DNA of 64,000 bases from Candidatus Methylophosphatis roskildensis (lineage in GTDB: Bacteria; Pseudomonadota; Gammaproteobacteria; Burkholderiales; Rhodocyclaceae). Below the pieces are notes generated by a model that had not been told where the DNA came from, ran no database searches, and was given only the letters and a program-made list of their open reading frames with translations. The number at the start of each line of letters is the position of its first letter. Position 1 is the first letter of the stretch. The DNA lies in contig JADJEV010000001.1 in assembly GCA_016708905.1 (NCBI GenBank), forward strand, positions 12,254 through 76,253, written 5' to 3'. Positions 1,117-57,100 of this stretch are shown here, in pieces. The translations under genes were made by a program, and so were the position numbers.

Positions 1117-1735
1117 CTTCGTACCTCAAAAAGACGGCCGGAAACCACCGGCCGCAAATCCCACTACAAGGAGGCTGATACAGGTTTCTTTACGACCGGC
1201 CCCACCGCTGCTTGAGCGCTGCGGGCAGGGTGGATCGGCGCTATCTGAATTAGTTTGTTAGTGCAATGGGTTAGCACGCAAGGCTGGACAAGCCCGGGAT
1301 TTCTCGGTATAACCCATGGGATGGAATCGATGAAACCCATGGCGCAAGTCCTATCGGAGCTTCAGGTACGGCCGGTAGAGCGCAGCGAGGAACAACGCTA
1401 TCGAGAGCAGATGGCGCGGCATCATTATCTGGGAGATCTCGCGAAGATCGGCGAGGCGATCTGGTATGTCGCAACCTGGCGCGGTCAGTGGGTCGCGCAA
1501 CTCAACGTCTCGGCGGCGGCCCTGAAATGCGGCGTGCGTGATCGATGGATCGGCTGGGACTTTCGCACGCAGTATGACCGACTCAAACTCATCGCCAACA
1601 ACAGTCGCTTCCTGATCCTGCCCGAGTGGCACCGGCCGAATATTGGCTCACGGGTGCTCTCGCTCACTGAACGGCGCATCGCCCGCGACTGGCAGGCGCG
1701 CTTTGGTCATCCCTTGCTCCTGCTGGAAACCTTTG

Positions 1736-3337
1736 GGTGTAACTCTCATACTGATGCCCGGCGAGTTGGAAGCGGCACGACGTTTTCGGGGAAGTGAATC
1801 TCGCGCCGGTATTGAGCCGAGACGAGCTGCCACGCGGCATCGAAGCGCTCGCTCTGCGCCAGCGCACGGAAGGTGAGGATCGCCTGCCCGCCGTCGATGC
1901 TCCAGCGTTGCCCCGAGCGTTTCATGCGCTGGGTCACCAGCGTCTTGCAGGCCGCCTCCACCACGCCCGAGCCGATCGGCAGATTCTCGGCACGTAGTCG
2001 CGCATAGTCCATGCGTGCGCGGTTGCGCCGGAAGTACGCCAGTTCCTGCTTGAGCGCCTTGCAACGGCGCTTGCGGCTGTGATGGTAGGCGAGCGTGCGG
2101 ATCACCTTGCCCACGCCGTCCTCGGCCTTGAGCAGCAGATGGCGGTATTCCTTGAAGCGGGCCTGCGCCTTAGGGGACGTTTCACCATAGACATGACCGA
2201 AGGCCCGCCGCAGATGTTCCGCGGCGTGGTAGAAGTCCACCACTTCCTCGCCTGGGGGCAGTTCCTTGGCGAGGAACTCCCAGTTGTCGCGCGCCCCATC
2301 GGCCACCTTGACCAGTCGTAGTTGCGGTTGGCTCGCGAGCGCATGTTCGACTTCGGCCACCAGTTGGCGCTTGAGTGTGCACTTCTTCGGCTCGGGCATG
2401 CGCGCATGACGCACCGTGCGCAGCCGCTCGCCGGCCCCGTCATAGTGGCTCAGCGTGCCGCAGCCCACTTCGCGAAATCCCGCTGGCCCCTTGGTGGGCT
2501 TGCCCTGCTGTCGGCTTTGTTCGCGTTTGTCCTCGCGCTGCCCGTCTTTCATCGGCGCCATCACCCCGTCCAGCGAGACCGCAAGCACGGCGGCCTGGGC
2601 GAGGGGCGGCGCCTGCTCGCGCAACTGGCTCTCCCACTGCATACGATGTTGTTCCCACTTCGCGTCAATCGCCTTGGGCAGTCGGTCCAGGCTGCTGCGT
2701 GAGGGGTGCATGCCGCCCAACTCGCCAAACAACTGCTCGCCTTCGGCCGGCGTCAGATGGGTGACCACCCACAAGCCCATCCGCGCGGCCAGCGGGGTGA
2801 AGAACCCCTCGACGATCCCAGCACGCAACTCCAGCGGGCATTCGCTCTGCCCGTTGGTGCCCGCCGCACGGTAACGGTGGCGCAGCACCTTCACCGGTCC
2901 GGCCGCCGTCATGTATTCGCCGTAGCCGCTGACCACCCGTCGGTAGAGCACCCCCTCGATCCTCAGCACCGGGAGCGTCACGTCCAGCCGCGCCAGCTCT
3001 TCGCCGACAAACTCGCGCTCGGCTTCGGCAAAGCGCCGGCGCACTTCGCGCTCGAACGCTTCGAACCCTTCTCCATGGTCACTTGCGCAGCGCCTGCGCC
3101 CCTCGATAAAACACAATAGGCTCTCCAGCGCCTTGCCGCCGACACGCGCCTTTTCCTTGAGCGCGCCAACTTTCGCTACACTTTCCATGGGCCAGCCTCC
3201 GGTGGTTGTTTCTCGCAAATCCAACCGCCTTCTATCACGAGGTTGGCCCACCCCCCATGCCAGACAAATTTCGTCTGGACACACTATCAGCATACTCATA
3301 AGCCATTGATTTTATTATCAACGGTAGACCTACACCC
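1736..3337 (-). mobile_element. ISKra4-family insertion sequence
   Basis: 8-9 bp target duplication AAACCTTT(G) at 1727-1735 and 3338-3346. Terminal inverted repeats are (G)GGTGTAACTCTCATACTGAT and the reverse complement of ATCAACGGTAGACCTACACCC. Removing the element restores the interrupted DUF4338 reading frame. Confidence 0.8.
1746..3188 (-). CDS. ISKra4-family transposase
   Basis: ATG at 3188 is preceded by GGAGG. Translation MESVAKVGALKEKARV.. ..SLDGVMAPMKDG.. ..VKVADGARDNWEF.. ..VDFYHAAEHL.. ..LPIGSGVVEAACKTLVTQRMKRSGQRWS matches my memory of ISKra4 transposases. Confidence 0.85.
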   Translation of the reverse strand: MESVAKVGALKEKARVGGKALESLLCFIEGRRRCASDHGEGFEAFEREVRRRFAEAEREFVGEELARLDVTLPVLRIEGVLYRRVVSGYGEYMTAAGPVKVLRHRYRAAGTNGQSECPLELRAGIVEGFFTPLAARMGLWVVTHLTPAEGEQLFGELGGMHPSRSSLDRLPKAIDAKWEQHRMQWESQLREQAPPLAQAAVLAVSLDGVMAPMKDGQREDKREQSRQQGKPTKGPAGFREVGCGTLSHYDGAGERLRTVRHARMPEPKKCTLKRQLVAEVEHALASQPQLRLVKVADGARDNWEFLAKELPPGEEVVDFYHAAEHLRRAFGHVYGETSPKAQARFKEYRHLLLKAEDGVGKVIRTLAYHHSRKRRCKALKQELAYFRRNRARMDYARLRAENLPIGSGVVEAACKTLVTQRMKRSGQRWSIDGGQAILTFRALAQSERFDAAWQLVSAQYRREIHFPENVVPLPTRRASV

Positions 3338-4825
3338 AAACCTTTGTCGATCCGCGGCGATTTCATGGCGGCGTCTATCGCGCGGCCAACTGGACGGAAC
3401 TGGGGCTCACTCAAGGCTACCGGCGCACGCGGCAAGGCTACAGCGGCGAGATTGACGCGCCCAAGCGCGTGTTTGTGCGTGCCTTGCACCGGGCCGCCCG
3501 AGCGCAATTGACGCATCCTGAGCGCAATCACCTCCAACTCACGGGAGCCCCAAAATTGATGCTGAGCGCTGAGCAGATGCGCGCGCTGCCGCTGTGCTTC
3601 ACCACCGTCACCGACCCGCGCCGCCGGCAAGGGCGCCGCCACCGCCTGCCCGTGGTGCTGGGCATTGCCGCGGGCGCCATCCTGTGCGGCATGCGCGGCT
3701 ACAAGGCCGCCCATGACTGGGCCGAAAGCCTGGGGCAAAAGGCACGTGAGCGCTTTGGCTGTCGGCGCGAGAAGGGGCGTTATGTCGTCCCCAGCGAATT
3801 CGTCATCCGCGATTGCCTGGTGCGCATTGAACCGGACACGCTGGATCGCGCGCTCAATGTCTGGAACCAGGCGTGGGCAAAAGACGACCGGGCGCTGGCG
3901 ATGGATGGTAAAGTCATGAAGAACGCGATCGACGCGCAGGGCTATCAAACGCACATCCTGAGCGTGATCGGCCATGAGTCGAACACCTGCCACACCCAAA
4001 AAAGTCGGGACATTGCCCGTAGCCGGCAGCGATGAGCAAAAGCGTACCAACGAGATCGGCATGGCCATCCCCGTGCTCGATGGCTGCGCGCTCGCCGGCA
4101 AGGTGGTCACGGCCGATGCGCTGCTGACCCAGCGCACACTGGCAGCGTATCTGATCGGGCGCAAGGCCCACTATAGCTTTACCGTCAAAGGCAACCAGCC
4201 CGGTCTCGAACGCGAAATCGCCTTGCTGTTTGAAAAGCGGGGCGATCCTGACTTCGTCGACGTGACCCCGCCTGACCATGGCCGCATCGAGACCCGACGC
4301 ATCTGGTGCAGTACGGCGCTCAATGCCTACCTCGATTTCCCTCACGTCGGCCAGGTGTTCATGATCGAGCGCGAATCAATCAAGAAGAAAACCGGCGAGT
4401 CATCGCGTGAGATCGCGCTGGGCATCACGAGCCAGTCGCCGCACGAGGCCTCGGCGCAAGAGGTCTTGGCGATCAATCGCGGCCACTGGACCATCGAGAG
4501 CACCCATTACATCATCGACTGGAACTACGACGAGGATCGCTCTCGCATCCGTACCGGCCACGGCCCGGAAAACATCACCCGCCTGCGTCGCTTCGCCGTC
4601 GGCATCCTCAAGTCCTTTCAGAGCACCGAGTCTATCGCCGAGATGATGCGCAAACTTTGCTTCAATACCCGCCTCGTCTTCGACTACTTGCGCATGACCA
4701 ATAACTCAGCTTCCAGACCACGGGTTATTTGAGAACAAATTTACCGTGGCGCTGCGGGACGGGCGGATTTACAGCCCGCCCGCTTTGGCGTAAGGTTTCA
4801 CCGCTGACCTGGGGGTCCTGACACA

Positions 4826-4903
4826 CCGCGCGGCATCGGTGCAGTCGGGTGAGAGAGTCCCTTTGAACCTGATCCGGGTAATGCCGGCGAAGGGAAGCGC
4901 AGC
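4826..4903 (+). promoter_or_regulatory. TPP (THI-box) riboswitch upstream of thiC
   Basis: GGTGCAGTCGGGTGAGAGAGTCCCTTTGAACCTGATCCGGGTAATGCCGGCGAAGGGAAGC matches the THI-box core (CUGAGA-like, ACCCUUUGAACCUGAUC.GG.UAAUGCC.GCG.AGGGA). Downstream, TTCTCCT (4931-4937) is complementary to the thiC Shine-Dalgarno AGGAGAA (4967-4973). This suggests translational control. Confidence 0.85.
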
Positions 4904-4976
4904 GAACGGGGCCCCTGCCCCGTCCGGCCGTTCTCCTCGTCGCGCCCCGAAACACGTTATCGCGCAAGGAGAAGGC

Positions 4977-6891
<1,915 letters not shown>

Positions 6892-49447: not shown

Positions 49448-50841
49448 CATCGCGTATGCCGAGGACCCTGTACACCTCCAGAGGGACAGCGGTCGACATC
49501 GGCCGCGAACTTGGCAAGGGCGGCGAGGGCTCAGTCTTTGATGTGCCGTCCTCGTCCAGCCAGGTCGCCAAGCTTTACCACAAGGCGCCGGACGGTAAGA
49601 AACAGGCCAAGTTGAGCTTCATGGCGTCAACAGCAGACGCCCAGCTGCTCAACTACGTCGCCTGGCCACAGGAGACACTACATCCCAGCCGAGGTGGCCC
49701 TGTCATCGGCTTCCTAATGCCGAAGGTGTCCGGCAAGAACCCAGTGCATATGGTGTACAGCCCGGCGCATCGCCGGCAGGACTATCCGAAGGCGGCTTGG
49801 GACTTCTTGCTGTACGTGGCGCGAAACATCGCGGCCTCGTTCAAGACTGTACACGCGCACGGCCACGTTGTTGGCGACGTCAACCAGAACAGCTTCATGG
49901 TGGGCCGCGACAGCAAGGTCGTCCTCATCGACAGCGACTCGTTCCAAGTCAACGCCCGCGGGACCATGCACCTCTGCGAGGTGGGCGTCTCGCACTTCAC
50001 TCCGCCCGAGCTCCAGACGTTGTCGTCGTTCGATGGGTTTAAGCGCACGACGAACCATGACAACTTCGGGCTGGCACTTCTGATATTCCATGTGCTATTC
50101 GGCGGCCGGCATCCGTAATCGGGCGTTCCCCTTCGCAATGGCGTAGGAGACGCGCTCGAGACGGACATCAAGAATTTCCGCTACGCCTATGCTCGGGACA
50201 ACCAAGCCCGTGGCTTCAGCCCGCCGCCACGCTCCATCCCGGTCTCTATGCTTCCCGATGCGATGGAGTCCATGTTCCATTTCGCGTTCACGGAGAAGGG
50301 AGCATCGGACGCTCGACCAACGGCACAGCAGTGGGTGGCCGCGCTAGACAGCGTCCGGAGCCGCCTCAAGAAGTGCAGCGCATCCGACATGCACGTCTAT
50401 CCAGACCGCTTGGCGTCATGCCCGTGGTGCTCTCTGGAAAGGCAGGGGGTGGCGTATTTCATCGATCTGGGCACTACCTTTACCCAGACGACCACAGGCT
50501 TTGTGCTTACTCAGAGCTTGTGATTTATTCCCCGGCGCGGCCGGAAGGCCACACAAGGAACATTGGCGCCGGGTTGTTCGGCGCAAGATGGATTTCGCAT
50601 TGCCTACCCCGCTATCGAGCGTTCATTTGGCGGATTTCCACCGATTCGGGCCCTCAAACCGGCAATCCGGCGATGCCGGACGAACCTGTCCCTATCCCGA
50701 GCAATTGCGGCGCCAGTGCCGCCATGCGCATCAGGTTGTGCGCCAGGGCGAAGATCGTGTCCCTCCGGCAATGCGGCATAGATTCTGCGGTTCGCGCTGA
50801 TTGGTACGGGGGTTGGCAATGAAGTAGTTTGCATTTGGGTC

Positions 50842-51759
50842 TTGCGTTCCAAATCCATCTCGGCTACTCTGCTGCGCATGCAGGGAACGCTGAGCTACCG
50901 TCACCGTGTGATCACCGACGAGGACCTCGTCTTCATTCGCAGTCTCATCGCCGAACATCCAGGCTTGAGCCGGAGGCAACTGTCCAAGAAGCTGTGTGAG
51001 GCCTGGAATTGGGTGCAGGCCAACGGCGCACCGCGCGACATGGTGTGTCGCGGGTTGATGCTGATGCTCCATCGCGAAGGTCTGATCGAATTGCCGCCGG
51101 TACGCTGGGTGCCGCGCAATCCGATGGTCGATCGCAGCCAACCGCAGCGGATGAGCGTGGATGAGGCGCCGCTGCATGCAAGATTCGCAGATCTTGGTCG
51201 GCTGGAGGTGCGCCAGGTGCGGCGTACGCCCGATGAGGCCTTGTTCAACAGCCTGCTCAAGCAGCACCACTATCTGGGTTACACGCAGCCGGTGGGGGAG
51301 CATCTGAAGTACCTGGTCTTCGCTCAGGGACGGCCGGTGGCCTGCGTGGCATGGTGCTCGGCACCGCGCCACCTGGGTAGCCGCGATCGGTTCATCGGCT
51401 GGGACAAGCAGGCACGGCGGCAGAACATCGGGCTGCTCGCCTACAACACGCGATTCCTCGTTCTGCCCTGGGTGACGGTGCCACACCTGGCCTCGCACAT
51501 TCTGGGACGCATGGCGCGCGTGCTCTGCGCCGATTGGCAGCGCCTGTACGGCCACCCGATCTATTTTGTCGAGACCTTCATCGACCCGCAGCGTTTTCGC
51601 GGGACCTGTTACCGAGCAGCCAACTGGATTGTGCTGGGGAGCACTACCGGGCGCGGCAAGGACGCACCGACCCGCCAGGCCAACCGCTCGATCAAGCAAG
51701 TGCTGGGCTACCCGCTGGTCAAGGAGTTCCGCCAGCGGCTCTCGGAAGTCCTCGTGTGA
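50842..51759 (+). CDS. DUF4338-domain protein (DruA-like domain) encoded inside the IS66 unit
   Basis: 305 aa, ..LLKQHHYLGYTQPVGEHLKYLVFA..RDRFIGWD..YNTRFLVLPW..YFVETFIDPQRFRGTCYRAANW.. Clearly homologous to the N-terminal part of the ISAs1 fusion at 1321. Confidence 0.75.
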   Translation: MRSKSISATLLRMQGTLSYRHRVITDEDLVFIRSLIAEHPGLSRRQLSKKLCEAWNWVQANGAPRDMVCRGLMLMLHREGLIELPPVRWVPRNPMVDRSQPQRMSVDEAPLHARFADLGRLEVRQVRRTPDEALFNSLLKQHHYLGYTQPVGEHLKYLVFAQGRPVACVAWCSAPRHLGSRDRFIGWDKQARRQNIGLLAYNTRFLVLPWVTVPHLASHILGRMARVLCADWQRLYGHPIYFVETFIDPQRFRGTCYRAANWIVLGSTTGRGKDAPTRQANRSIKQVLGYPLVKEFRQRLSEVLV

Positions 51760-53363
51760 AGCGCCCCGAATTCGTCAACGCCACTCAGGCACAGCTCGAC
51801 GAACTGCTGGCGCAGGCCAAGACGACATTCTCTGCCGAGCAATACGAACTGCTCGAAGGGGTGCTCGGCACCTTTGTGTACGTCATGCAGGCCTTGCAGA
51901 ACGCCAAGACCTCGATCAAGCGCTTTCGCCAGATGTTGTTCGGCGCGCGTACAGAGCGCAAAGCCAAGGTGTTCAAGGACCATGGCGAGCGCGCCGCCGG
52001 TGAGCCGCCTTCGGCTGAAACCGGTAACGCTGCGAAGCCTTCCCCGCCGTCGGCGGGGCACGGTCGCAATGGCGCACAGGCGTACTGCGGTTGCCCCGTG
52101 GTCGAGGTCAAGGTCGCCGATCTGCAACCGGGCGACCCATGCCCTGAATGCACCGAGGGCAAGGTCTATGACTCACCGCCAAGGATCCTCGTCAAGGTGC
52201 TCGGCCAGCCCCCGCTGGCAGCGACGCTCTACAAGCTGCGACAGTTGCGCTGCCGTCTGTGCGATGCGCGCTTCACCGCCTCCCTGCCCGAGGGGGTGAG
52301 CTTGCCCAAGTACGACCCGAGCTGCGCGAGCATGCTCGCCTTGCTTCGCTACGGCAGCGGCATGCCCTTCTACCGCCTCGAAGGCCTGCAGGCGAGTCTG
52401 AACGTCCCGCTCTCCGATGCCACGCAGTGGGACGTCGTGGCCAAGGCGGTACCGGGGCCACGCGCGGCCTTCAACGAACTGATCCGCCAGGGCGCACAGG
52501 CCCCGCTGCTGCATAGTGATGACACCCATGCGCAGATCCTCTCGCTGAGGGCGACACGCAGCCAGCTCGAGGCCGCCGGCCAGAGCCCTTCAGCCAAGGC
52601 GATCAACACCTCGGGTATCGTCGCCGTCCTGCCCGAGGCGCGCAAGGTGGTGCTGTTTTTCACCGGTCACCAGCACGCGGGGCAGAATCTGGCCGACGTT
52701 CTGGCGCAGCGGGCCCGGGATTTGGCCCCGCCGACCCAGATGAGCGATGCGCTGGCCTGCAACTTCGCCGGCGAGTTCAAAACGATCGTGGGCAAATGCC
52801 TGGCCCATGGCCGACGCAAGGTGCTCGAGCTGGTGGAGGATTTTCCCCAGCCGTGCCGCACCGTGATCGAGGTTCTGGCCAAGGTCTACACCGTGGATGC
52901 GCACTGCCGCGACGAGAAGATGTCCGCCGAGCAGCGCCTGCTCCACCACCAGGCCCACAGCGCCGAGCCCTTGCAAGGGCTGCATCGTTGGATGACGAAT
53001 CAATTCGAGCAGCACCTCGTCGAGCCCAACAGCAGCCTGGGTCAGGCCCTGCGCTACCTGCTCAAGCACTGCAGCGGACTCACCTTGTTCCTGCGCCAGG
53101 CAGGGGCGCCGCTGGATAACAATCTCTGCGAAAGAGTGCTCAAGCGGGTGATCTTGCATCGGAAGAATTCGATGTTCTACAAAACCAGCAAGGGGGCGGA
53201 GGTCGGCGATATCTACATGAGCCTCATCCACACCTGCGAGCTCTGCGGGGTCAACCCGTTCGAGTATCTGCAGGCATTGCAGATCCATGCGCAGAACGTG
53301 TTGACCCGGGCCGCCCTGTGGTTGCCCTGGAATTACCGCGAGCAGTTGGCACGCGCAGCCTGA
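51756..53363 (+). CDS. IS66-family transposase (TnpC-type)
   Basis: The GTG at 51756 overlaps the DUF4338 stop (GTGA). ..IKRFRQMLFGARTERK..CPECTEGKVYD..CRLCDARF..HSDDTHAQIL..CLAHGRRKV..DNNLCERVLKR..RKNSMFYKT.. Confidence 0.85.
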   Translation: MKRPEFVNATQAQLDELLAQAKTTFSAEQYELLEGVLGTFVYVMQALQNAKTSIKRFRQMLFGARTERKAKVFKDHGERAAGEPPSAETGNAAKPSPPSAGHGRNGAQAYCGCPVVEVKVADLQPGDPCPECTEGKVYDSPPRILVKVLGQPPLAATLYKLRQLRCRLCDARFTASLPEGVSLPKYDPSCASMLALLRYGSGMPFYRLEGLQASLNVPLSDATQWDVVAKAVPGPRAAFNELIRQGAQAPLLHSDDTHAQILSLRATRSQLEAAGQSPSAKAINTSGIVAVLPEARKVVLFFTGHQHAGQNLADVLAQRARDLAPPTQMSDALACNFAGEFKTIVGKCLAHGRRKVLELVEDFPQPCRTVIEVLAKVYTVDAHCRDEKMSAEQRLLHHQAHSAEPLQGLHRWMTNQFEQHLVEPNSSLGQALRYLLKHCSGLTLFLRQAGAPLDNNLCERVLKRVILHRKNSMFYKTSKGAEVGDIYMSLIHTCELCGVNPFEYLQALQIHAQNVLTRAALWLPWNYREQLARAA

Positions 53364-53388
53364 GCGCAGCGGCGCGCCCGGGCACGCT

Positions 53389-53748
53389 CTATGCGGCCAC
53401 GCTCAGCCGACGCCACGCCGGGGCCGCATTGGCGCGCGCCGGATCGCCCCCCATGAGCAGCAGTTGCAGCTCGCAGGCCTCGAGCGCCCGGCTCGGCTTC
53501 TCGCCGTCGGGCCAAAATGCGAACCGCCCGCTCGATAGCCGTTTCTGGCACAACCAGTAGCCTTGACCGTCATAGGTCAAAATCTTGATCGCCGTGCGCG
53601 CCCGGTTGCAAAAGACGAACAGGGCACCACTGAAAGGATCGGCCTCCAGGCGTTGTCGGCACGCGCCCACCAACCGATCGATTCCGGCACGAAAGTCGAT
53701 CGGCTCGACCGCCACCAGAATGCGCATGTGCGGCGTGATCTGGATCAT
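53389..53748 (-). CDS. IS66 Orf2 (TnpB)
   Basis: MIQITPHMRILVAVEPIDFRAGIDRLVGACRQRLEADPFSGALFVFCNRARTAIKILTYDGQGYWLCQKRL.. The ATG overlaps the tnpA stop. Confidence 0.85.
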   Translation of the reverse strand: MIQITPHMRILVAVEPIDFRAGIDRLVGACRQRLEADPFSGALFVFCNRARTAIKILTYDGQGYWLCQKRLSSGRFAFWPDGEKPSRALEACELQLLLMGGDPARANAAPAWRRLSVAA

Positions 53749-54167
53749 GCCGCACCCCAGAAGGCGCTGCACAGCCCAGCCAGGCCGGCAAGGCCATTGC
53801 CATTGAGTTCCACGCGCATCTTCGCCCCTCGCCCGTTCTCCAGCTCGACGGCACATTCGCACAGACTCTGCGCGCCAGGTGCCGGCGAAACCATCAACTC
53901 CACGAACCGCGGGCCGTCCTTCCCAGCGTCCGCCGCACTGACCTCGTGCTCCAGACGCTTCTTCAGCCTGTCGCGGTCGACGCGCAGCTCACACACCACG
54001 CGGTGCACCCCGTGTTCCCTGGCCATCTCTACCGCCGCCACCCACAAGCGCTCCGGAATATGTTCGCCGCGAACACGCCTCTCACGCCAATGCTTGAACC
54101 GCTCCCCTATCTGCGCCAGGCTCTCACCATGCCCCCTCGCTTGCTCGACCTTCGCCCTCTCGTCCAT
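53745..54167 (-). CDS. IS66 Orf1 (TnpA, HTH)
   Basis: 140 aa, ..IPERLWVAAVEMAREHGVHRVVCELRVDRDRLKKRL.. ..VELENGRGAKMRVEL.. Confidence 0.75.
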   Translation of the reverse strand: MDERAKVEQARGHGESLAQIGERFKHWRERRVRGEHIPERLWVAAVEMAREHGVHRVVCELRVDRDRLKKRLEHEVSAADAGKDGPRFVELMVSPAPGAQSLCECAVELENGRGAKMRVELNGNGLAGLAGLCSAFWGAA

Positions 54168-57100
54168 CAGTTGCTCTCCTCATCCGGTTGAACTCGCAGC
54201 TGAAGTTAGCAAGGACGTCGATCGATTTCATGCTGGCTTGCCGGAGGGACACCGAAGATCAGCATCACACATTTGACCTTTCCCAGCCCGCGCACTCGAA
54301 ACTGCTGCAATCCCCGATTGCGACTGTGCGCATTGACGCATTCGGCCGTTGCCGCCCGTCGCTTGTACAGGGCCTTCGCTTCATCCGTGCCCATCCGCTG
54401 GCGCCAAGCCGCCACTGCCTCGCTGTCGCGCGCCTTGGCCTGGTGCGGGTCGACCGTCTTGTCCTTCGGTTCGGGCACCGGCCCATAGACGCATGTGCTC
54501 TCACTGGCCCGCTCGATCTGCTCGTGACCGACATAACCGCCATCGACCAGCCAGGCTTCTGGTGCCCGCCCACAGCGCTCGGTGACCTGCTCGAGCATCG
54601 GCCCCATCTGTCCCTGATCGGTGCCGATGGTGGCCACATCAAGACCGACGATCACCAGACTGTCGGCATCAGAGGCCAGTTGTGGGTTGTAGGCCGGCCG
54701 GAAGCCGCCATCGCCCATCTTCATCACCGTGGCCTGGGCGTCGGTCATCGAGACCCGCGCTTGTTCGGCGGGCTTGCCTTGCCGCTGCTTGATCGCTTCG
54801 ATCTCGGGCAGCCGGGCCAGCGCCTGCTCCAGACGCTCTTGGCGTTGCTGCGCCGCCCGCCGCCGGGCCGCCTCCCGTGCCCGTTGGACCAGGGCCGGGT
54901 CGGCCTCCAGTTCGGCTTTCAACCGCGCCACGTGCGCGCGCGCCGCTTCCAGGCAGCTTGCCAGTTTCTCTTTGCGCCGAAACGAGCCGGCCCCGGCACT
55001 GGCGCGTACCCGCATCCCGTCCTGGGCCACCTGCTTGAGCTTGACCACCCCCGCGCCCATCAGGCTCGCAATGCTCACGCTCAGCAGTTCATCGAGCGCT
55101 TCACCGTGATCCTTGCGAAAGTCCGACAGCGTGTGGTGATTGACCTGCACACCACCACAGAGCCAGCGATAGGCGTCGTGCGCTTCGATCAGGCGGGAGA
55201 CTTCCCGCGCGCTGCCTACCCCGTCGAGCGTGGCGTACAGCCACAGCGAGAGCAAAATCTCCGGGGCGATCGCCGCGCGCCCGACACCGCCTTCGGCTAC
55301 CCGCACAGTTGCGTAGAAGCGCCCCAGATCCTGGCGCTCGACATAGGCCCAGACCAGTCGCGCCCGGTGCCCTTCGGCCAGCAGCGATTCAAGATCGCTG
55401 GCCCGAAATTCCATCTGCCCTCGGTTCGGTAACAGCACGCGCGCTCGGGTCTTCGTCATCTTCGCTGTCTCGCACCAAGGCCAGAGTACATTATGCCACA
55501 GACATCATCCGGGCGGGGGATTTTTTCACAGCCTCTCAGGTCTGGGCTGTGATCGAGGCCGTCGCGGCGCCGCCCACTCTGAGCATCCCGAGCCCGAGCG
55601 AATTCAAGGTCACCGCGCAAGCGCTGCCGGCTGGCGTCCCGGGGGCGGGCACCATCACCTTCTACCGCTTGCTTGCAGTGGGCATCGGCATCGCCATCGC
55701 GGTGGCGCCCCCCAAGGCCATGTTCTGGGGCATCGTGATCGGAGCCATCGGCTGGATCATCGCGGGAAGCGCTGGTTCGTCTGAACGCACGGCCGAGCGC
55801 TCGCGCCGCTCAACTGCACAACAGGCCGCGAAGAAGGAATACGACGAGCTGGTTGAGCGGGTACAGCGGGATGCTGGACCCGCAGGCTTTCAGGCTAAGC
55901 GAGCGGAGCTGTCCAAGCTTCGTAACGAATATCAAGCGCTGCCGCAAGCCGAGAGGCAGGAGCTGGACCACCTGCATTCCACGGCCCACGAGCGCCAGCA
56001 GCAGAAGTTCCTGGACACCTGTTTCATCGACAGTGCCTCAATTTCCGGTGTCGGTCCGGCGCGGAAGGCCGCGCTTCGGTCCTTCGGCATCGAAACGGCA
56101 GCCGACGTGAGCCGCAGCAAGGTGATGCAGGTACGGGGCTTCGGAGAAGGCCTCACCCGGGCGATGACGGACTGGAAGGCATGCTGTGAGAGACGGTTCG
56201 TCTTCAACGCATCAAACGCCGTCTCCGCTGCTGACCGTGACGCGGTTCGCTCCAAGTTCGGCGCCCGAAAGGTGAGCATCGAAGCTGCCTTGACCCGCGG
56301 AGCGGGAGAACTGCAAAACTTTAGGCAGCGTGCCACCAGCCAGATGGCCATGCTAAAGCCGCAGCTCGAAGCTTCAGCCAGGAAGCTTGCCCAGGCCGAA
56401 AAGGATCTGTCGGCTCTGTAGAGGAACGCCTGCGCGATGCGCCTCGCTTCGAAGAACGCTTGCAAGAAGTCGCCGCGCGGATGATGCTCGACCCACATCA
56501 GCGGTGTTTTGGTGGTTATGCATGGCTCGCGCGCGAGCAGCTGCTTTGGGGCGATGAGTTCAGCTTTGCAAATTTTGCTGACGGGTCGGCGCTAGAAATC
56601 TCCAAGGTCGGCAGCCCGCACAATGATGAGTACTCCCGGCGGAACCCCAACGGCAGGTCAGGCCGACGACTTGTCGGTGATCAACCTTCACGAACGGCTG
56701 CTCCACTCCGTCACCGGCCATAGAACCGCTGATTCCGCATCCGGCAGCTGAGGGTCGCGTCCTGCCGAAGCGGAAATGGAAAGCGGCCGTTCGGCGCGGT
56801 TTTCCAACGTGTGGCAGGAAACCGGCGGATAGCGGCCACAGCCGGCGCAAGACGCCACGGGCCGCAATCGCGGACGAGCTGGCCGAATGTCAATCGAGTT
56901 GAGCCGCAGGCCCACTGGATACCGGCATCGGTGACCCTCGATTTCGCGTCGCCGCTACGTCTCTTTGTGGCCGGATGCTGCCAGTGATCTCGCCATTCCC
57001 AAGTAGTGGTAATGGCCGACCTTGACTCATACTTTATTCGGTTGCATCCATAAGGTCGGTAGACCTGCGCGAAGGTCCATTCCATGATCTCGAAATCAAC

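Follow-up and report, generated by a model that had tools for sequence, protein, structure and literature searches.

A Mom-like GNAT domain, DUF4338, in insertion sequences of at least four families and a putative programmed frameshift in its ISAs1-type carriers

Introduction

The ISAs1 family of bacterial insertion sequences (ISs), which is catalogued in ISfinder and includes the H-repeat elements of E. coli, comprises elements of 1.2–1.5 kb that carry a single transposase open reading frame (ORF) and duplicate 8–10 bp of their target. Here we describe an ISAs1-family element of about 1.9 kb located at positions 1226–4748 (plus strand) of a 64,000-nucleotide stretch of Candidatus Methylophosphatis roskildensis (contig JADJEV010000001.1, positions 12,254–76,253 of the forward strand; hereafter the window). 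Its transposase consists of an extra N-terminal domain of about 200 aa (DUF4338, or 'DruA'), followed by the ISAs1 helical domain and then by the DDE catalytic domain. A second element of the same window, this one of the IS66 family, was also found to encode a DUF4338 protein.

Among the described systems close to what was found, the first is the A_AAA_AAG heptamer, the classic site of ribosomal −1 frameshifting in dnaX, IS150 and IS911; slippage on A-runs is known for some IS elements, and the OrfA products of IS1 and IS3 are regulators.

The second is the Mom protein of phage Mu, which moves glycine from a charged tRNA to the N6 position of adenine in DNA. Mom is a dimer that requires an insertion resembling a helix-turn-helix (HTH), and its active-site set comprises H58, Y59, R111, S124, D149, R151 and Y159 (PMC13219725, 2026). 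The third is DUF4338 itself, the hallmark of DruA in Druantia defence systems, which was named a GNAT domain in a comparative study and left unspecified beyond that (PMC10853773). The searchable literature held no description of a DUF4338–transposase fusion, of a frameshift in ISAs1 elements or of a link between DUF4338 and Mom. Going by that literature, the conserved frameshift in ISAs1, the homology of DUF4338 to Mom and the fact that no fewer than four IS families have repeatedly taken it up would all be new; the architecture is already present in databases, but uninterpreted as far as the same literature shows.

Results and discussion

An interrupted element of the ISAs1 family

At 1226–4748 lies a defunct copy of a 1.9-kb insertion sequence of the ISAs1 family, which measures 1,912 bp after removal of a nested IS and of one copy of the target duplication that the latter produced. 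Its ends were set by comparison with an uninterrupted sister copy (L086), a copy from a Sterolibacteriaceae contig (L001) and three copies from Ferrovum myxofaciens (L003–L005), all fetched via protein homologues. They lie at 1226 on the left (CAGGGTGG...) and at 4748 on the right (...AAATTTACCGTG; last letters ACCGTG), and are of the CAGGG type (CAGGGTG.. on the left, ..ACCGTG on the right). In relatives the left end reads CAGGGTGAATTTG.., in agreement with the right end CACGGTAAATTTG.., and the copy in the window is bounded by a 10-bp target duplication, GCGCTGCGGG, at 1216–1225 and 4749–4758. The features of the locus are as follows.

1216–1225, no strand: left copy of the target-site duplication GCGCTGCGGG; the identical 10-mer is at 4749–4758, and sister copies have other 10-bp duplications at the same junctions
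1226–1244, plus strand: left terminal inverted repeat CAGGGTGGATCGGCGCTAT; homology with independent copies begins exactly there
1321–1735, plus strand: orfA part 1, residues 1–138, the N-terminal two thirds of the DUF4338/Mom-like GNAT domain (from the translation; PF14236 over aa 14–163)
1727–1735, no strand: left-hand 9-bp repeat AAACCTTTG, duplicated when the nested IS inserted; its partner is at 3338–3346
1736–3337, minus strand: nested ISKra4-like insertion sequence of 1,602 bp, with a 517-aa transposase at 1746–3299 (minus strand)
3347–4035, plus strand: orfA part 2, with its stop at 4033–4035 (from the translation, Pfam and the invariant columns of the relatives' alignment)
3998–4004, plus strand: putative recoding site, A6G in the window (CAA AAA AGT) and A7G (CAA AAA AAG) in 52 of 53 distinct relatives
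4004–4732, plus strand: orfB, the remaining ISAs1 DDE transposase, 242 codons; in the +1 frame relative to orfA in the window copy, in the −1 frame in relatives
4730–4748, plus strand: right terminal inverted repeat ..TTGAGAACAAATTTACCGTG (from comparison with other copies)
4749–4758, no strand: right copy of the target-site duplication GCGCTGCGGG, matching 1216–1225

A first-pass annotation of the window had taken inverted repeats at 1301–1326 and 4711–4735 for the termini. These proved to be internal: homology between copies reaches 1226 and 4748, and in Ferrovum the conserved part of the right end is limited to its outer 20 nt. The same annotation had recognised the nested element, and here it was borne out: the 1,602 bp at 1736–3337 lie between two copies of the 9-bp repeat AAACCTTTG (1727–1735 and 3338–3346) and have terminal repeats GGTGTA../GGGTGTA.., and ISKra4 (NF033572) is the best family for their transposase, even though the score of 182 bits is under the 205-bit cut-off. 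The insertion divides the GNAT domain between ETF and VD. Excision of 1736–3337 with one copy of the repeat joins ...LLLLETF|VDPRRFHGG... (VDPRRFHGGVYRAANW...) without a change of frame, as had been predicted for the ORF starting at 1321. A second instance of this neighbourhood was observed on a Thiodictyon plasmid (NZ_CP020371; L103, 1522–2808), where an ISKra4-family transposase gene stands directly upstream of a GNAT–ISAs1 gene; that ISKra4 elements were met twice beside or inside such genes may be coincidence or may reflect a mutual insertion preference.

The first part of orfA encodes the motifs HHYLG, RDRWIGW, NNSRFLILP, NIGSR and LLLETF. The second part completes the GNAT domain, which extends to about 3421, and goes on to the DDE_Tnp_1_assoc helical domain (about 3596–3865) and the start of the DDE domain with its A-DGK motif. 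As proposed earlier, the residues encoded by 1321–1735 plus 3346–3470 match PF14236 (DruA; aa 14–163 of the repaired protein, E 1.7e-21), and two transposase families are matched further on, namely PF13808 (DDE_Tnp_1_assoc; aa 222–311, E 1.2e-16) and PF01609 (DDE_Tnp_1; aa 369–543, E 1.2e-5). The NCBIfam equivalog for ISAs1 transposases, NF033564, covers aa 242–559 of the repaired protein at full model length with 161.3 bits (cut-off 70). The repaired protein thus scores as an ISAs1-family transposase, and the element has the CAGGG inverted repeats and a 10-bp target duplication of fixed length, both in agreement with the family table. It differs from the family description in three respects: a length of about 1.9 kb versus 1.2–1.5 kb, the extra 200-aa N-terminal Mom-like GNAT domain, and, in this clade, an apparent two-frame expression via A_AAA_AAG versus a single ORF. 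With regard to length and ORF number this is a departure within the family and not an exclusion from it, the catalytic protein being a clear member.

The first-pass annotation had further read the DUF4338 domain and the transposase as one stop-free frame. This stood for the DUF4338 domain and the start of the DDE domain, which do share a frame; a stop at 4033–4035 follows, and the last 242 codons lie in another frame. The window copy is therefore disabled twice, by the ISKra4-like insertion in the extra domain and by one A missing at 3998–4003, and owing to the nested IS it is non-functional whatever the status of the A-run.

Spread and mobility of the family

An uninterrupted copy had been suggested as a check on the reconstruction, and one was found: the sister copy L086 measures 1,912 bp, is 99.84% identical to the repaired element (3 mismatches) and has its own 10-bp duplication, GCCCATGGCG. 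The Ferrovum myxofaciens copies are identical to one another over 1,915 bp and stand at different sites with the duplications GCAGATTACC and TTTGTTTTCT. A scan of one genome per species returned at least 590 related loci of the same architecture, from Beta- and Gammaproteobacteria, Terriglobia (at least 15 copies per genome), Nitrospira, Desulfobacterota, Ignavibacteria, Anaerolineae, Pirellulales and others. Complete relatives are 1,907–1,930 bp long, and of 55 such copies for which the two flanks were at hand, 43 show exact 10-bp duplications (38 distinct), among which no consensus indicative of a target-site preference was found. Such exact duplications, together with identical copies at different sites, argue that the family is mobile. 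The true termini, the duplications that enclose the frame and the comparison of copies place the DUF4338-encoding part inside a bona fide, recently active insertion sequence, so the domain is part of the IS and not a neighbouring gene, as the first-pass annotation had held.

Head-to-tail tandem copies of the element were observed in two unrelated genomes, the Terriglobia metagenome-assembled genome (MAG) CAUVWY02 (L016 980–4821, L021, L024 and L020) and Ca. Accumulibacter ACC003 (L047 989–4814). These have the order duplication–IS–duplication–IS–duplication and are spaced by one 10-bp unit identical to the outer duplication; they could be IS dimers, the result of tandem amplification or an effect of long-read assembly.

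A conserved frame break in the catalytic domain

The frame of the window copy breaks at CCCAAAAAAGTCGGG, in an A6 run at 3998–4003, ahead of the 0-frame stop at 4033–4035. When a full-length relative was used as a tblastn query, the frame was seen to shift by −1 at query residue 349–355 in almost every one of 80 related loci retrieved from genomes. Protein homologues likewise fell into two classes, one of about 590 aa with all three domains and a far larger one of 358–363 aa whose members end exactly at the break of the window copy.

Fifty-two of 53 distinct sequences have CAA AAA AAG at this position, the remaining one having a deletion, and in all 52 the heptamer A_AAA_AAG is in phase for tandem −1 slippage. 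The CAA, AAA and AAG codons are invariant, while the adjacent Cys, Val, Gly, Leu and Pro codons each occur in 2–4 synonymous forms (e.g. GTC/GTG/GTA/GTT and GGC/GGT/GGG/GGA); judged by this synonymous variation, the site is more strongly conserved than the protein sequence requires. The 0-frame stop comes directly after the site (AAG TAG) in 11 of the 52 and six codons past AAG in 40, which makes it codon 3 or 8 (CAA being codon 0) in 51 of 52, and the Val codon that creates the later stop is GTA in 42 of 52. The predicted −1 product has the junction ..TQKK|VGTLPV.., in agreement with two variants that carry A8 (P0003 and P0014, QKKVG). It also agrees with lineages that are true single-ORF fusions: P0119, which has no A-run, reads ..GQNKVG.. 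at the junction, and the distant Thiodictyon copy, also a single ORF, matches as well. The earlier annotation had asked whether intact relatives might have a stop and an IS boundary between the two parts. Most do have a stop, inside the transposase, and none has an IS boundary there.

Together, the invariant, in-phase CAA AAA AAG and the −1 frame of the transposase sequence that follows it point to a conserved programmed frameshift in the relatives, and a stop behind an invariant A AAA AAG indicates recoding and not two separate genes. In its in-phase heptamer, short OrfA, fused OrfAB and 0-frame stop either at once or a few codons on, the arrangement resembles those of dnaX and of the IS1 and IS3 families, although it is found in another transposase family.

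Several observations weigh against this interpretation. The shift would take place inside the catalytic domain, past the first Asp, unlike in IS1 and IS3, where the shift separates the DNA-binding domain from the catalytic one. A search for a conserved hairpin or pseudoknot downstream found none: RNAalifold predicted no stimulatory structure on 39 sequences, and a hand-drawn 5-bp downstream stem was rejected, since it had no covariation and was paired in 72.8% of cases versus 73.0% in shuffles. Lastly, run length varies, from A6 in the window and in L086 (4058–4063), through A7 in 52 of 53 distinct loci, to A8 in P0003 and P0014 (three JGI samples), so that part of this variation is mutation or homopolymer sequencing error. 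The window copy itself lacks the in-phase heptamer that its relatives have, and A6 would require a +1 or −2 shift.

Either the A6 run arose by genuine slip-strand mutation or it is a homopolymer error. The latter is plausible because the nearby thiC gene (window 4976–6891) changes frame at a run of five G (G5) near 5772–5776 (...IRWG|...), by an assembly indel or as a pseudogene. In the Ferrovum copies a second frame break occurs in an A-rich stretch; its position and direction differ between loci and it was therefore treated as sporadic. Further A-run polymorphism was seen at L087 (about 2543) and L089–L091, and the run might serve as an on/off switch at the DNA level besides being a frameshift site. 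In the Accumulibacter copy L050, the slippery site and the stop of OrfA are followed at once by a 2.4-kb insertion (4075–6455) that encodes a 736-aa ORF.

DUF4338 and phage Mu Mom

Structure prediction, proposed earlier as a check, gave a confident fold. The AlphaFold model of the 363-aa OrfA P0006, which is 100% identical to the window protein over the region covered, is confident for residues 10–185 and has GNAT topology (β1, helices, β2–β4, a long helix, β5, a helix, β6–β7). Foldseek against solved structures placed phage Mu Mom first (8bv8; E 1.9e-7, target TM-score 0.64), followed by many GNAT acetyltransferases, among them TmcA and NAT10, which acetylate nucleic acids. Against a viral library, Mom-like and NAT_SF viral proteins led the matches.

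Profile comparisons agreed with the fold. The Pfam family Mom (PF25680) was the sole consistent second-best family, recurring for each of 14 domains with scores under the threshold (best E 4.7e-6), and the homologue P0009 already has a precomputed match to it. A DUF4338 profile aligned by hhalign with a nine-member Mom alignment built from phage genomes gave 95.5% probability (E 1.4e-8, 133 columns). The counterparts of the Mom active-site residues in the IS protein are H35, Y36, R96, S110, D140, R142/143 and Y149. Six of the seven are identical and conserved, being invariant or nearly so in the ISAs1-type alignment and in all IS contexts, with D sometimes replaced by E.

On this basis DUF4338 appears to be a GNAT-fold homologue of Mom, with conserved H-Y, R, S, D and Y, and both are borne by transposing elements. 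It is a sister family and not a member: the window protein scores 15.6 bits against PF25680, whose cut-off is 27.1 bits, and the IS domain is without the C-terminal HTH-like insertion and conserved tail of Mom, a separate HTH-type domain being joined to it instead. The domain would also be catalytically competent and act on nucleic acid.

There are points on the other side. The link to Mom became significant only once the nine-sequence Mom alignment was used; comparisons with Mom as a single sequence were weak (hhalign 8%, hmmsearch 4 bits). Searches of Protein Data Bank sequences with either a single sequence or a profile gave no match, Mom having been found there by fold comparison only, and many ordinary acetyltransferases score almost as high as Mom by fold. 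The Arg that corresponds to R151 of Mom is displaced by one residue and is not invariant. In addition, substrate and donor are not deducible from a GNAT fold, as the authors of the Mom study also state (PMC13219725).

DUF4338 with other transposase families

The first-pass annotation had noted a homologous protein at 50842–51759 of the window and called it stand-alone. Its homology to the interrupted ORF was upheld (34% identity, E 6e-32), but the gene is the first gene of an IS66-family element.

50757–54252, plus strand: DUF4338-bearing IS66-family element of 3,496 bp, with perfect 15-bp inverted repeats GTGTCCCTCCGGCAA and the 8-bp duplication CGAAGATC at 50749–50756 and 54253–54260
50878–51759, plus strand: 293-aa protein with an N-terminal helical (HTH-like) region followed by the DUF4338/Mom-like GNAT domain (PF14236, E 1.5e-30; 100% identical to P0121)
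51756–53363, plus strand: IS66-family DDE transposase, TnpC (PF03050, E 8e-39; NF033517, 184.5 bits, cut-off 180)
53389–54167, minus strand: IS66 TnpB at 53389–53862 (PF05717; NF033819, 94 bits, cut-off 50) and an overlapping 140-aa ORF at 53745–54167

The stop of the DUF4338 gene overlaps the start of the transposase gene by 4 nt (GTGA), and an IS66 transposase gene follows with the same overlap in 11 of 11 contexts of relatives. At least 8,000 homologues of the 293-aa protein exist, and all of the 120 matches listed are at least 80% identical. TnpC and TnpB score above their NCBIfam cut-offs and the 8-bp duplication is typical of IS66. The gene order departs from the canonical tnpA-tnpB-tnpC in one direction, the DUF4338 gene being coupled ahead of tnpC and the remaining genes lying on the opposite strand. 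This arrangement, in which tnpB and the 140-aa ORF converge on DUF4338-tnpC, was seen to be kept in other contigs (L100–L102), at 81% DNA identity.

The survey of DUF4338 genes associated with transposases that had been suggested earlier yielded fusions or couplings to ISAs1, IS66, IS4 and IS701. In the IS4 case, met on a Thiodictyon plasmid, the end of a DUF4338 gene and the start of an IS4/Tn5-type transposase gene overlap in ATGA, and the pair is contained within inverted repeats with a 9-bp duplication that splits a host gene. An exhaustive search of 1.84 billion cluster representatives returned 9,075 related clusters (E <= 0.001), and inspection of the best 150 of these for fusions identified two to IS701 transposases (P0331 and P0345; 320–330 bits, cut-off 150), one to an IS4 transposase (P0354; 425 bits, cut-off 160) and one to the C-terminus of an IS66 transposase (P0379). 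A fifth protein, P0351, joins DUF4338 to an IS630-like N-terminal HTH, with a score below the cut-off and with no DDE domain present. DUF4338 is thus joined to at least four unrelated IS families (ISAs1, IS66, IS4 and IS701) by fusion or by translational coupling. The 421-aa protein P0378 was seen to end right after the IS4/Tn5 'IS4_FS_Nterm' DNA-binding domain (NF049926), and in IS4-linked forms, too, a frameshift may be what yields OrfA and OrfAB.

In every case the GNAT domain stands beside a module of the HTH type, whether its own N-terminal helices or the DNA-binding domain of a transposase. For the 293-aa protein this assignment is weak, consisting of three confident helices and Pfam matches at E of about 0.02, and its AlphaFold model is poor (predicted local confidence, pLDDT, 58; shallow alignment).

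Proposed role and alternative explanations

Our favoured interpretation, to which we would give a probability of roughly 0.55, is that the window holds a dead ISAs1 copy from a two-frame family whose extra domain is a Mom-like transferase that modifies nucleic acid to assist or regulate transposition. Normal reading of CAA AAA AAG would give an OrfA of about 360 aa, with the extra domain, the helical domain and a catalytic stub holding the first catalytic Asp, whilst a −1 shift on A_AAA_AAG would give the OrfAB transposase, about 590 aa long and joined at ..QKK|VG..; comparison among relatives argues strongly for both products. Addition of one A during transcription would lead to the same OrfAB protein. 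The extra domain would be an active transferase, kept on DNA by the adjacent HTH-type module. Its substrate would be nucleic acid, the likeliest being DNA of the element or its target or close to these, and the modification would regulate or assist transposition. Candidate purposes of such a modification are marking the ends or the target, timing transposition and shielding DNA. Repeated capture by unrelated DDE transposases suggests that the domain serves transposition or the persistence of the element in general, and its role is probably common to DDE insertion sequences and not specific to ISAs1. The guess of a DNA-related role made in the first-pass annotation fits the homology to Mom, the role itself being one that we infer.

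A wider proposal is offered tentatively, with rather more doubt than belief. DUF4338 would be a Mom-type hypermodifier of nucleic acid, possibly dependent on aminoacyl-tRNA, that was recruited independently by at least four DDE IS families (possibly by IS630 too) and marks element or target DNA to control transposition or to shield DNA; the same chemistry would account for DruA in type I Druantia as a DNA-marking (self/non-self) component.

It is possible, at odds well short of even, that the extra domain is instead an ordinary GNAT dependent on acetyl-coenzyme A (CoA), or a metabolic sensor, whose substrate is not nucleic acid but a small molecule or a protein (the transposase, or a host factor of the nucleoid or of repair). 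The model is fitted nearly as well as by Mom by dozens of enzymes that acetylate proteins or small molecules, some members are named 'GNAT superfamily N-acetyltransferase' by JGI pipelines, and the comparative study went no further than GNAT (PMC10853773). What speaks against it is that Mom alone recurs as the second Pfam family, in 14 of 14 domains, with a significant profile–profile match, that the conserved residues are those of Mom and not the usual Q/RxxGxG/A motif for CoA binding, and that the domain is always joined to a module of DNA-binding type.

As regards the route to OrfAB, it seems rather unlikely that recoding occurs during transcription, with RNA polymerase slipping on A7 to add one A and so produce an A8 mRNA for the fused transposase. 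The product, ..QKKVG.., would be identical, the A8 DNA variants show that the reading frame is functional, no downstream stimulatory structure was found, and A-run slippage does occur in some ISs. Set against these points, A_AAA_AAG is in the correct phase for the classic ribosomal heptamer, a phase that is invariant and yet would be irrelevant to slippage of the polymerase, and a run of seven A is short for efficient slippage.

A non-catalytic function, in which the domain would have lost its catalysis and would serve the transposase, or a regulatory OrfA, as a module for structure, oligomerisation or DNA/tRNA binding, is improbable. The dimeric state of Mom and its need for an HTH-like insertion would suit such a module, as would the regulatory OrfA proteins of IS1 and IS3. 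However, the Mom-essential H, Y, R, S, D/E and Y are invariant or nearly so across ISAs1-, IS66-, IS4- and IS701-linked copies that are only 35–40% identical, which is the pattern expected of selection on an active site.

Very unlikely, in our view, is that the two frames are unprogrammed, the sequences being decaying pseudogenes or artefacts of sequencing through the A-run, and the real gene a single ORF with A8. A6 and A8 variants do exist, many of the source assemblies are long-read MAGs, the window has its thiC broken at a G-run, and some copies have additional sporadic breaks. Nevertheless, A7 with the −1 offset recurs in 52 of 53 distinct sequences, from short-read, long-read and complete genomes of many phyla; the heptamer stays invariant and in phase while the flanking codons vary, with GTA as the Val codon in 42 of 52; and these same copies have fresh, exact target duplications.

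That the DUF4338 gene is a Druantia druA gene or a remnant of one, carried as IS cargo without a role in transposition, is highly improbable: PF14236 does bear the Pfam name 'Druantia protein DruA', it is matched by the IS-borne proteins well above threshold (77–107 bits, cut-off 27; the likeness to type I DruA being to the Pfam profile and not to a DruA sequence), and UniRef labels an IS OrfA 'Druantia anti-phage system protein DruA', but the PADLOC models, Druantia included, gave no family at E <= 0.01 for P0006, P0121 and P0003, no DruB–DruE genes (DruE being the large helicase) were found in the window or in any fetched context, where the neighbours are transposase genes, and the IS-borne forms lie within IS boundaries, fused in frame or overlapping a transposase start by 4 nt, which is atypical of cargo genes.

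Significance

The usual view of insertion sequences is that they encode nothing beyond the needs of movement. In the elements described here, a conserved, probably catalytic Mom-like domain occurs in thousands of copies from many phyla. Its association with transposases, as judged from sequence, points to an unrecognised accessory activity in transposition. DUF4338/DruA, known as a hallmark of defence, gains a concrete hypothesis, Mom-like modification with named active-site residues, and programmed −1 frameshifting would be extended to the ISAs1 family. There is also a practical consequence, as defence-system counts based on PF14236 alone would take in insertion sequences and could be inflated.

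Public names of these proteins differ widely. OrfA proteins (P0042, P0031, P0069, P0091 and P0111) were found under 'Druantia anti-phage system protein DruA' (UniRef), 'DUF4338 domain-containing protein' (NCBI), and 'GNAT superfamily N-acetyltransferase' and 'predicted transposase YbfD/YdcC' (JGI), and RefSeq names a relative 'ISAs1 family transposase'.

Flanking genes

Downstream of the interrupted element, a thiamine pyrophosphate (TPP) riboswitch (RF00059, 57.5 bits) was located at 4801–4912, upstream of thiC. The right end of the IS at 4748 is only 53 bp upstream of the riboswitch, so that riboswitch and thiC may be cut off from their promoter by the insertion.

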